In this document: positions 59,741-60,520 of the stretch, piece by piece
Layout: every line of letters starts with the position of its first letter
Numbering within the stretch: position 1 is the stretch's first letter
Assembly: GCA_964423795.1 (NCBI GenBank)
Contig: CAYRGC010000004.1
Location: 1,032 to 65,031, forward strand
Length of the DNA: 64,000 nucleotides
Direction: 5' to 3'
DNA from: an uncultured Candidatus Peribacteria bacterium
Lineage (GTDB): Bacteria; Patescibacteriota; Gracilibacteria; Peribacterales; Peribacteraceae
Translations under genes and position numbers: made by a program
Notes under the pieces: generated by a model
Told to the model about the DNA's origin: nothing
Database searches by the model: none
What the model saw: the letters and a program-made list of their open reading frames with translations, nothing else

Positions 59741-60520
59741 CTACAGGGAAGCCAACGCCCCGCGCAAACCGCCGATGGCGCGCAGGAGCCCCGGCGTCTC
59801 CCGGTAGTACTCGATCGTGCAGTAGCGGATCGGCAGTCCCCGGCGGATCAGCTCGATCGCCTCCGCGAACTCGACGCCGTCCGGGGCGATATGCGCGTCC
59901 TTCGCCATGCCTCCCGCCGGCACGTCGGGCTTGCACAGATGAAGCTGGACGGCTTTCGCGAGGGGCAGCGACGAGACGTAGGAGGCGTGGTCCAGTCCGC
60001 GGTTATGAGCCGTGATCCGGGCGTGCGCGGCATCGAAGAGGAAGGCGATGCCGTTCGCCTCGACGATCTCCGTGAGGAAATCCCCGTCCGTCACGACGTC
60101 GTACGCGGGGACGGGATAGTAGTTGTTGTTCTCGATCGCGACCGTGACGCCGGGCGGAAGGGCGGCCTTGAGCCACGCGACGTTCTCGGCCGCATTGCCG
60201 ATCAATGCATTTCGGGTAAGGACGTCTCCCGCGAGAGCGTACATGCCGTTTTCGACCGTGGCGCCGGTGCAGCAGCGTGACGAATGGAAGGACAGGACCG
60301 CCAGATCGGGCATCGACGCCGCGATCGAGCGCACGCCGGCGCGGACGGCGTCCGACCACGGCTGCGTCAGCTCGAGCTCGCTGTGGAACAGTTCTTCCCG
60401 GCCGTAGACGACGCCGACGGAATGGTCGCGCCGCTCCAGGCAATCGCTCGCGGCGGCGATCGCCTCGGCGTCTTCTGCCTTCGCGAAGAGCGTCGAGACC
60501 GGCGTGGCGACCTTGATCAT
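59741..60520 (-). CDS. DUF692-like (UPF0276 / MbnB-TglH family) TIM-barrel protein, divergent and short
   Basis: 259 aa from ATG 60520. VAIENNNYY..x..DFLTEIVEANGIAFLFDAAHARITAHNRGLDHASYVSSLPLAKAVQLHLC...DAHIAP...CTIEY parallels the DUF692 pattern ENvSsY..E.eFL......cgLLLDvNNvyVsa.NhG.D...YL..LP...V.q.HLAGH...iDtHd.P....IEWD. Confidence 0.6.
   Translation of the reverse strand: MIKVATPVSTLFAKAEDAEAIAAASDCLERRDHSVGVVYGREELFHSELELTQPWSDAVRAGVRSIAASMPDLAVLSFHSSRCCTGATVENGMYALAGDVLTRNALIGNAAENVAWLKAALPPGVTVAIENNNYYPVPAYDVVTDGDFLTEIVEANGIAFLFDAAHARITAHNRGLDHASYVSSLPLAKAVQLHLCKPDVPAGGMAKDAHIAPDGVEFAEAIELIRRGLPIRYCTIEYYRETPGLLRAIGGLRGALASL

Follow-up and report, generated by a model that had tools for sequence, protein, structure and literature searches.

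A TIM-barrel protein of the DUF692/MNIO superfamily in a nonulosonic acid-type operon of a Candidatus Peribacteria bacterium, a proposed analogue of the hydrolase PseG

The window, that is the whole stretch of 64,000 nucleotides analysed here, comes from an uncultured Candidatus Peribacteria bacterium (assembly GCA_964423795.1, contig CAYRGC010000004.1, positions 1,032 to 65,031 of the forward strand) and traces back to a wastewater metagenome. It contains a gene for a TIM-barrel protein of the DUF692 superfamily, also named MNIO after its multinuclear non-heme iron oxidases; gene and product are called the TIM gene and the TIM protein below. The preliminary description, made from the letters of the window, had set this gene among sugar-modifying enzymes, and Pfam and NCBIfam searches found the neighbours to be as described (DegT, NeuB, GNAT and others). 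The operon and the adjoining genes are as follows.

59741..60520, minus strand: the TIM gene, coding for a 259-aa DUF692/MNIO-superfamily TIM barrel of a glycan-dedicated clade, proposed PseG analogue
60517..61686, minus strand: DegT-family sugar aminotransferase, ArnB/PseC-like (PF01041, 1e-122), coupled to the TIM gene
58862..59710, minus strand: NeuB-family ulosonic acid synthase without a C-terminal SAF domain (PF03102, 1e-73)
57729..58865, minus strand: N-acetyltransferase of 378 aa with GNAT Pfam matches, WecD-like from residue ~146 to 376 (PseH role)
58431-58865, minus strand: N-terminal domain of this acetyltransferase, residues 1 to ~145, which appears to be a truncated PseG-like remnant
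56658..57665, minus strand: NanM-like putative sugar O-methyltransferase (TIGR04371, 92.5 bits, cut-off 44)
55888..56664, plus strand: CTP_transf_3 cytidylyltransferase (PF02348), for activation to the CMP-ulosonic acid, co-occurring with the module

The TIM gene was said to be translationally coupled to the DegT gene and to lie 30 nt from the NeuB gene, and both statements held. Plus-strand positions 60517-60520 carry tcat, the reverse complement of ATGA, so the DegT stop codon and the start of the TIM gene overlap on the minus strand. The distance from the TIM stop codon (59741-59743) is 30 nt to the TTG start of NeuB at 59710, as set by the lister of open reading frames (ORFs), and 48 nt to the first ATG of NeuB. 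The TIM reading frame stays open upstream to 62056, giving a 771-aa ORF in G+C-rich DNA. The start of the gene was set at 60520 because its homologues uniformly begin M-x-K-[IL]-[AT]-T-P. All of the segments quoted earlier were present in the minus-strand translation of 59741-60520, namely IENNNYY (residues 129-135), FLFDAAHARITAHNRGLDHASYVSSLP (residues 160-186), VQLHLC, KDAHIAP and TIEY. Identity among the homologues ranged from 74% down to about 30%; judged by this conservation, the TIM gene is a genuine gene and no chance ORF. The G+C-rich DNA of 51000-64000, including 59741-62056 on the minus strand, yields very long spurious ORFs on both strands. The 771-aa ORF crosses the DegT gene in another frame and runs into the TIM gene, and a spurious 818-aa ORF lies at 61539-63995, so mechanical ORF lists in this region need support from homology.

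The sole Pfam match of the TIM protein was PF05114 (MbnB_TglH_ChrH), as expected from the DUF692 membership claimed for it, with 37.8 bits against a gathering score of 25 (E 1.6e-9), covering only residues 106-212. The fusion members of the clade matched PF05114 with 52-79 bits over longer stretches. With E values up to 10 allowed, the Pfam search still gave no PF01261 (AP_endonuc_2) match for the TIM protein; a weak precomputed match to this model exists for some members of the clade. In hhalign comparisons, classic DUF692 proteins from Actinomadura were aligned with a probability of 98.2% (E 5e-14, 202 columns), while AP_endonuc_2 proteins from related glycan loci reached 41% (E 2.8e-4). The preliminary description had allowed that a TIM barrel of the AP-endonuclease-2 or sugar-phosphate-isomerase kind might have been over-assigned; the profile searches did not bear this out and favoured DUF692/MNIO. 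All of the NCBIfam equivalog models for MNIO enzymes were missed, with 49 bits against a cut-off of 400 for ApyH, 32 against 310 for BufB, 30 against 360 for HvfB and 10.5 against 600 for ChrH.

An AlphaFold2 model of the TIM protein, built on 21 homologues, had a mean pLDDT of 95.7 and a pTM of 0.92. The structural comparison proposed earlier, run with Foldseek against the PDB, put TglH (8HI7_B, E 6.8e-10, TMq 0.72) and MbnB (7FC0, 7TCR and 7DZ9, TMq 0.67-0.72) on top. These were followed by endonuclease IV (5ZHZ, E 8.5e-9, and 4HNO; TM-score 0.58, against about 0.7 to the MNIOs), PA2260, L-rhamnose isomerase, the DUF692 structure 3BWW and YcjR, a 3-keto-glucoside epimerase; psicose epimerase was a further match. 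The family profile searched against solved structures matched 3BWW (3.5e-8), TglH (1.4e-7) and MbnB (0.022), and identity to solved MNIO members was only about 15%. Both sequence profile and predicted fold place the TIM protein in the DUF692/MNIO superfamily.

A word-indexed search of 5.8 billion proteins returned 21 relatives with the single sequence and about 95 with a profile as query, each with at least 210 bits. This group was followed by a small tail of 109-132 bits, and classic DUF692 proteins came next with about 40 bits. An exhaustive hidden Markov model (HMM) search of 1.84 billion representatives gave 203 matches at E<=1e-30, 696 at <=1e-10 and 2685 at <=1e-3, and the clade comprises about 200 representatives at 50% identity. 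As judged by the score gap (at least 210 against about 40 bits), the TIM clade is discrete and well separated from classic DUF692. A scan of one genome per species found 25 loci, without exception in metagenome-assembled genomes, from Marinimicrobia, Chitinophagales, Deltaproteobacteria, Verrucomicrobiota, Planctomycetota, Arcobacter, Pelagibacteraceae, Omnitrophota, Hydrogenedentota, Oligoflexia, Halobacteriovorax, Magnetococcales and one archaeon. Further hosts were Desulfovibrionaceae, Doudnabacteria of the candidate phyla radiation (CPR) and Promethearchaeota. Many of the host lineages have an anoxic habitat or lifestyle (Omnitrophota, Desulfovibrionaceae, CPR Doudnabacteria, Promethearchaeota and Guaymas Deltaproteobacteria), which fits an oxygen-independent reaction and argues weakly against iron- and O2-dependent oxidation.

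Two members of the low-scoring tail were found in other settings. P0098 (L032:8001-8810; 121 bits, about 60% coverage) has non-glycan neighbours (MFS transporters, APH-type kinases, methyltransferases and a metallophosphatase), and given this context the clade may serve other small-molecule uses. P0100 (L033:366-9733; 113 bits) lies in a different nonulosonic acid-type cluster with a SAF-containing NeuB, a PglD-like acetyltransferase, two DegT genes, a GFO_IDH_MocA oxidoreductase and CTP_transf_3, so the link to glycan pathways reaches beyond the core clade.

Nine residues of the TIM protein make up a putative trinuclear metal site. Their codons were located by conservation and by alignment to DUF692 structures and proteins.

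59810..60385, minus strand: codons of the nine putative trinuclear-site residues
60383-60385, minus strand: H46, invariant
60284-60286, minus strand: H79, Gln in one subclade
60131-60133, minus strand: E130, invariant
60032-60034, minus strand: D163, invariant
60023-60025, minus strand: H166, invariant, at the MNIO Asn position
59939-59941, minus strand: H194, Gln in another subclade than that of H79
59897-59899, minus strand: D208, invariant
59891-59893, minus strand: H210, invariant
59810-59812, minus strand: E237, invariant

Conservation was judged on the 21-sequence alignment of the clade, in which seven of the nine positions (H46, E130, D163, H166, D208, H210 and E237) are invariant. The ligands of MbnB are H54, H90 and E133 for Fe1, E133, D163, H192 and E239 for Fe2, and N166, D208 and H210 for Fe3 (PMC9060507). 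E130, D163, H194 and E237 aligned directly with the ligands of MbnB and DUF692 structures in the profile alignment, and hhalign placed H79 on the classic DUF692 His that is equivalent to MbnB H90. H46 is invariant and lies within a barrel strand; its alignment to MbnB H54 is approximate only. The candidate Glu, Asp and His ligands that had been noted at corresponding places of DUF692 proteins were therefore all found, with each of the nine positions occupied (H46 approximately). The DvNN box was likewise replaced by DAAH as noted, and H166 sits on the second Asn in the profile alignment to 3BWW, TglH and MbnB. The Asn166 that is highly conserved at the third MNIO site is an invariant His (H166) throughout the clade, with D208 and H210 present.

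The TIM protein shares with the MNIO/DUF692 enzymes (MbnB, TglH, ChrH, HvfB, ApyH, BufB) the Pfam family, the TIM-barrel fold, the best structure and profile matches, the residue types at the Fe1 and Fe2 positions and at two of the three Fe3 positions, and a conserved Asn after the D-x-x-N box (N173). It differs from them in having no gene for a peptide precursor or partner, in its sugar-pathway context, in the His at the position of Fe3 Asn166 and in its predicted reaction, which is hydrolysis and not oxidation. The exchange of Asn166 for His is the sole change of residue type against the MbnB set, and it creates D-x-x-H as in an endonuclease IV family enzyme. The zinc ligands of this enzyme, AsfvAP, are H78, H115, E142, D179, H182, D231, H233 and E271 (PMC7076025). 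In a sequence comparison, not a structural superposition, the residue types and spacing of the TIM site agreed with this published list. All eight AsfvAP ligands have counterparts in the TIM protein, D-x-x-H included, and the trinuclear-zinc phosphodiesterases of this kind (Nfo, AsfvAP) also share with it the TIM-barrel superfamily and the proposed chemistry, metal-activated water acting on a phosphoester. Unlike them, the TIM protein has no AP_endonuc_2 match, has a lower TM-score to endonuclease IV (0.58 against about 0.7 to the MNIOs), lies in a glycan operon and shows nothing that hints at a DNA substrate or repair. On the alignments, the clade retains a full trinuclear-type site, whose composition agrees with that of the hydrolytic relative throughout and with that of the oxidative relatives in all but one of the nine positions.

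One recurring module around the TIM gene emerged from Pfam-labelled gene calls, tblastn mapping and ORF clustering. It was present in 77 non-redundant loci of archaea and many bacterial phyla, all 77 with a sugar-gene context. The usual order is DegT, the TIM gene, a PtmA-like classical short-chain dehydrogenase/reductase (SDR), SAF-less NeuB and the WecD-like GNAT, followed by a class-III aminotransferase and CTP_transf_3. Capsule_synth genes, methyl-, formyl- and carbamoyl-transferases and HisH/HisF-type amidino genes are often nearby. The neighbourhood survey that had been suggested thus placed the homologues of the clade almost always inside glycan modules with NeuB, a CMP-transferase and aminotransferases. 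In 54 loci, the gene directly upstream of the TIM gene is DegT, and 48 of these have the order DegT-TIM-SDR. In L037, the seven module genes form a single tight operon, with no PseB-type dehydratase, no PseG and no NeuC within 10 kb. The lineage of the window (the window, L001 and L003) has an operon without the SDR and the class-III aminotransferase and carries the NanM-like methyltransferase instead.

A Pfam census of 140 flanking ORFs from 26 TIM loci found frequent families that are solely sugar-modifying. DUF2063, MbnC, TglI and RRE-type partners were not among the frequent families, and Glyco_tran_28_C (PseG-type) and Epimerase_2 (NeuC-type) were outside the 25 commonest, each with fewer than 3 members. 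The absence of a precursor or partner for a ribosomally made peptide that is modified after translation (RiPP), remarked on in the preliminary description, was also apparent in the window: with a 4-nt overlap with DegT and 30 nt to NeuB, no small-peptide gene fits beside the TIM gene.

The PtmA-like SDR of most modules (among them those at L037:7553-14340, L026:6724-13865 and L041:6181-13063) scored 179 bits with NF006619, whose cut-off is 255. The class-III aminotransferase of most loci, which resembles glutamate-1-semialdehyde (GSA) aminomutase, passes PRK06209 ("glutamate-1-semialdehyde 2,1-aminomutase") with 578 bits against a cut-off of 486; this annotation is almost certainly wrong in the module context.

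The slot of the TIM gene can be occupied by a different gene. A re-search of metagenome contigs anchored on the GNAT, made without reference to the TIM gene, recovered the same module; of the 79 loci retrieved, 41 have a TIM gene and two a PseG-like gene. Where the slot was covered, 77 of 79 non-redundant loci had the TIM gene only, two had the PseG-like gene only and none had both; no PseG-like gene was found by tblastn in any TIM locus. In one of the two lineages (L099), the order is SDR, NeuB, GNAT, CTP-transferase, DegT and then a 351-aa PseG-like gene, which overlaps the DegT stop by 4 nt, the same as the TIM gene does in the window. In the other (L095 and its longer counterpart L118), DegT is followed by a 341-aa PseG-like gene, SDR, NeuB and GNAT onwards, and the start of the PseG-like gene overlaps the DegT end. 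The slot protein matched the NCBIfam PseG model TIGR03590 with E 7.5e-21 over profile positions 2-277 of 280 and has an IGTGH motif; its relatives are named SpsG/PseG by their sources and carry PF04101. L090 was considered as a further variant without the TIM gene and set aside as uninformative, since its module starts in a part of the contig that has housekeeping genes (RNase HII, ribosomal protein L1) on its flanks.

Fusions were found in parallel with this replacement. At least eight proteins (P0158, P0161, P0162, P0163, P0172, P0182, P0186 and P0240) have the TIM barrel N-terminal and the module GNAT C-terminal, and the same GNAT family, with the signatures WDxxFFG, CHD, DIRLTF, VVTQGRNY and ELWYHKW, is C-terminal to a complete PseG-like domain in P0304, P0305 and P0309. 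In the window, the WecD model NF008212 matched the GNAT on residues 142-376 and PDB entry 2FS5 on residues 146-375, while its N-terminal domain of ~145 aa had no Pfam match and no PDB match. This domain aligned to residues 80-156 of PseG-like proteins (hhalign probability 87%, E 3.7e-6, 72 columns). It is without the PseG-like catalytic N-terminus and the entire C-terminal half, the second domain, and so resembles the decayed half of a former PseG-GNAT fusion; on this alignment it appears to be a truncated PseG-like remnant. The family, fold, ligand conservation, module, complementary distribution with PseG-like genes and parallel fusions were all observed. The displacement, the parallel fusions and the vestige suggest, from these comparisons of genes, that the TIM enzyme and PseG are interchangeable in the pathway, and the TIM enzyme appears to have taken over from a PseG that was formerly fused to the acetyltransferase.

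PseG, the UDP-2,4-diacetamido-2,4,6-trideoxy-beta-L-altropyranose hydrolase, and the TIM enzyme share the operon slot and the fusion position before the same GNAT family and are mutually exclusive, which predicts the same pathway role for both. They would be analogues and not homologues: PseG has a GT-B Rossmann fold with a GxGH motif, whereas the TIM protein is a TIM barrel with no sequence similarity to it. PseG is metal-free and cleaves the glycosidic C-O bond, whereas the TIM enzyme is predicted to be metal-dependent. LegG and NeuC, the hydrolysing 2-epimerases, release the nucleotide at the equivalent step of legionaminic and neuraminic acid synthesis. They have an Epimerase_2 fold, unlike the TIM protein, and invert C2, and nearly all TIM modules lack them; in L034, a NeuC-like gene lies nearby.

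The pseudaminic acid route consists of PseB, C, H, G, I and F. The other neighbours in the window fill the PseC, PseH, PseI and PseF roles; the PseG step is lacking, and the TIM gene is extra. Our preferred interpretation, to which we give somewhat better than even chances, is that the TIM protein is an oxygen-independent sugar-nucleotide hydrolase and an analogue of PseG. It would be a metal-dependent enzyme of a distinct DUF692/MNIO branch that works without a peptide substrate. DegT would aminate a 4-keto sugar nucleotide (PseC role), the WecD-like GNAT would acetylate the new amine (PseH role), the TIM enzyme would free the diacetamido sugar from its nucleotide carrier (PseG role), the SAF-less NeuB would condense the freed sugar with phosphoenolpyruvate (PEP; PseI role), and CTP_transf_3 would activate the condensation product (PseF role). 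The predicted product is a CMP-activated amino-ulosonic acid resembling pseudaminic (Pse) or legionaminic (Leg) acid. In the TIM enzyme, a bi- or trinuclear metal site, with H46/H79/E130, E130/D163/H194/E237 and H166/D208/H210 as the putative metal groups, would activate water for the cleavage of the sugar-phosphate linkage in the style of endonuclease IV, with no oxygen involved. The substrate, the bond cleaved, the metal identity, the absence of redox chemistry and whether C2 is epimerised are those that we infer. Among the options that had been offered for the gene, the replacement of a missing hydrolysing step is favoured by the comparative evidence, that is the PseG-like gene in the same slot, over the oxidative one, which we regard as less likely.

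Several findings weigh against a PseG-like hydrolase. The closest characterised relatives are all O2- and iron-dependent peptide oxidases and eight of the nine ligands are as in MbnB, so homology alone would predict oxidation. The seven-gene module is mostly without a recognisable 4,6-dehydratase nearby, extended SDRs being present in only about 9 of 30 loci, which leaves a Pse-type sugar-nucleotide route only partly explained. The TIM gene is linked most tightly to DegT and the SDR; L005 has the DegT-TIM-SDR trio without NeuB on an 18-kb contig, and in L034 the NeuC-like gene is 7 kb from the TIM gene. The replacement of H79 by Gln in one subclade and of H194 by Gln in another is unusual for zinc sites. 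The PseG-like proteins of the slot scored 74.9 bits against the curated TIGR03590 cut-off of 153.5, and the displacement is confined to two lineages (L095/L118 and L099, with perhaps the truncated L097 too). The PtmA-like SDR and the class-III aminotransferase are without an explained role in a Pse-type route. Both persist in the PseG-like variants, so their role is independent of the TIM gene.

It is unlikely, in our estimate, that the TIM protein is a true MNIO-type oxidase acting on a sugar, with mixed-valent iron and O2 oxidising a hydroxyl of a sugar nucleotide or an ulosonic acid in the manner of myo-inositol oxygenase and KdnB. Its product would be a carbonyl for the coupled DegT or another oxidised decoration; the KdnB/KdnA pair of oxidase and aminotransferase, which makes Kdo8N, is a precedent. 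PF05114 above its gathering score, the hhalign probability of 98% to classic DUF692 and the TglH and MbnB structural matches all speak for such an oxidase, as do the same residue types at all six MbnB Fe1/Fe2 ligand positions. The TIM gene is also coupled to an aminotransferase that requires a carbonyl substrate, and the operons of the window lineage and L034 have no PtmA-like SDR to provide it. The substitution of a PseG-like hydrolase in the same slot, with DegT, the SDR and the rest unchanged, counts against this, since one would not expect an oxidase and a hydrolase to stand in for each other. The parallel GNAT fusions point to a step after acetylation, the clade is present in many anaerobic lineages, the highly conserved MNIO Asn ligand is a His here, and no partner protein of the usual MNIO kind was found. 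With the same low probability, the TIM protein would be an MNIO with a carbohydrate substrate, the first on a sugar nucleotide or ulosonic acid, which frees the sugar oxidatively or adds a new functional group to a sialic-acid-like sugar.

Two further schemes were considered. An oxidase that supplies DegT, deduced from a rough parity of aminotransferases and carbonyl-making enzymes, was ranked lower; the parity breaks down in L035, and the data are better explained by PseG displacement. The SDR and the TIM protein acting as a split 4,6-dehydratase was judged unparsimonious, with an ene-one intermediate that would need separate reduction.

A possibility as unlikely as the sugar oxidase is a redox-neutral isomerase, epimerase, dehydratase or lyase of keto sugars, xylose-isomerase-like and acting between the PtmA-like SDR and DegT, where it would set stereochemistry or shift the carbonyl. 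It would account for the DegT-TIM-SDR order in 48 loci and for the trio without NeuB in L005; AP_endonuc_2 barrels pair with SDR or DegT in related loci (the second NeuB cluster of L003, described below; L005; L035), and L-rhamnose isomerase, YcjR and psicose epimerase were among the Foldseek matches. Such xylose-isomerase-like AP_endonuc_2 enzymes (YcjR, psicose 3-epimerase, L-rhamnose isomerase) share with the TIM protein the superfamily fold and the sugar-pathway context. Their profile relation to it is weak (41%), however, and they have one or two metal sites against its nine-residue set; the TIM clade keeps all nine trinuclear residues, where these isomerases need only a four-residue E-D-H-E site. 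An isomerase would also leave the PseG-like displacement and the parallel fusions unexplained. Variants with a PseG-like gene retain the SDR, whose role is hence independent of the TIM gene, and in the window lineage and L034 the TIM gene occurs with no SDR.

We consider it very improbable that the TIM protein is a phosphomonoesterase, an analogue of KdsC or NANP. In that case, NeuB would join a phosphorylated aldose to PEP, and the trinuclear site would strip the resulting ulosonate phosphate of its terminal phosphate. The endonuclease IV-type ligand composition, a module without an HAD phosphatase, a NeuB without a SAF domain and the lack of a nearby dehydratase or hydrolase gene in most loci are consistent with this, but the replacing gene is PseG-like and no phosphatase, and DegT and the GNAT are nearest to sugar-nucleotide enzymes (ArnB, PseC, WecD).

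A cryptic RiPP maturase with precursor and partner genes elsewhere and an incidental place in the operon, which would have PF05114 membership alone in its favour, was rejected on gene context and has next to no probability, given an operon position kept with overlaps or very short gaps in 77 loci of bacterial phyla and archaea, no DUF2063/MbnC/TglI-type partner among the frequent neighbour families, a TIM barrel fused to a sugar N-acetyltransferase and NCBIfam maturase equivalogs far below their cut-offs. By its gene context and sequence, the TIM protein fails the hallmarks of MNIO RiPP maturases (precursor and partner genes, equivalog scores, Asn ligand) and is not to be filed as one.

To our knowledge, all characterised DUF692/MNIO enzymes modify ribosomal peptides or proteins. 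Our literature search found no paper linking DUF692/UPF0276 with pseudaminic or nonulosonic acids and nothing relevant on an MNIO-sugar link or on TIM barrels in nonulosonic acid clusters, and no gene link to the TIM family came from the SugarBase preprint, which deals with higher-carbon ulosonic acids. A recent survey of the DUF692/MNIO family does not contain the words sugar, polysaccharide or aminotransferase (PMC12452194). Among papers on related pathways, one on P. shigelloides lists PtmF as a 326-aa oxidoreductase and not as a SIS-type isomerase, and a 2026 paper assigns the oxidoreductases ElaA and ElaC to C8 epimerisation of CMP-Leg.

The TIM clade, with hosts that range from Pelagibacteraceae to Omnitrophota, CPR bacteria and Asgard archaea, appears, by comparative genomics, to be a fixed part of a sialic-acid-like sugar pathway in which PseG was displaced. 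If the TIM enzyme is a PseG analogue, the reaction scope of the MNIO/endonuclease IV scaffold would extend to sugar nucleotides, and the missing hydrolase would be supplied for many environmental nonulosonic acid clusters that are incomplete in current annotation. PseG, a PseG remnant with the TIM enzyme, and TIM-GNAT fusions would then form a natural series for non-orthologous displacement, and caution would be due with automatic labels such as RiPP maturase or "multinuclear iron-containing protein" on every PF05114 match. If instead a sugar-acting MNIO proved true, bacteria and archaea alike would have recruited the MNIO scaffold for primary glycan biosynthesis. The prediction of a hydrolase analogue, which has its basis in comparative genomics, is specific and directly testable and would be surprising for both the MNIO and the nonulosonic acid fields.

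For DegT and the SAF-less NeuB, the NCBIfam models gave scores below the curated cut-offs. DegT scored 331 bits with PseC and 323 bits with ArnB, each below its cut-off, and its best solved relatives were ArnB and perosamine synthase; the SAF-less NeuB scored about 265 bits with the NeuB and PseI models, also below their cut-offs. The closest solved structures were 6NCS (290 aa) for the SAF-less NeuB and 6OEW for the cytidylyltransferase. These two entries bear only generic molecule names; related pathway enzymes already have structures, and a TIM partner is described for neither. The NanM-like methyltransferase was found only in the window, L001 and L003 in the comparison of related loci and is putatively a decoration step particular to the lineage of the window. 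Other features of the window that may belong to the same glycan pathway are listed below.

61665..63224, plus strand: Capsule_synth (KpsS/KpsC-like) protein (PF05159, 31.8 bits, gathering score 20)
52816..53805, plus strand: GDP-mannose-4,6-dehydratase-like extended SDR (PF16363, 3e-92; gmd model 339 bits, cut-off 415)
40279-41226 and 44403-45491: the other two extended SDRs of the window

A member of the Capsule_synth family was present in 15 of 30 related loci, and by analogy with the known KpsS/KpsC the protein of the window is a candidate transferase for the CMP-ulosonic acid. Any one of the three extended SDRs (40279-41226, 44403-45491, 52816-53805) is a candidate supplier of the 4-keto-6-deoxy sugar nucleotide. 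A plus-strand block of four genes at 51536-55891 encodes a C-methyltransferase (Methyltransf_13/14), the GDP-mannose-4,6-dehydratase-like protein, a TviB-like nucleotide-sugar 6-dehydrogenase and a polysaccharide deacetylase. This block, which adjoins the module, is kept in L001 and partly in L003; its probable product is a second sugar of the same glycan, C-methylated or uronic.

On its minus strand at 15050-15772, 44 kb from the TIM gene, the window has a region that tblastn matched weakly (25% identity, E 4e-10) to the NeuC-like Epimerase_2 fragment of L034; it may encode an ordinary UDP-GlcNAc 2-epimerase.

Close relatives of the window's locus carry a second NeuB cluster, apart from the first (L003:1-6168 and L001:1-3150); the corresponding region would fall past base 64000 of the window. 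It comprises an aldo-keto reductase, a KdsC-like HAD phosphatase (Hydrolase_3), an AP_endonuc_2 TIM barrel, an SDR, NeuB, a GmhA-like SIS_2 isomerase and Capsule_synth. The predicted isomerase and phosphatase suggest a sugar-phosphate route to another ulosonic acid, possibly one longer than nine carbons.

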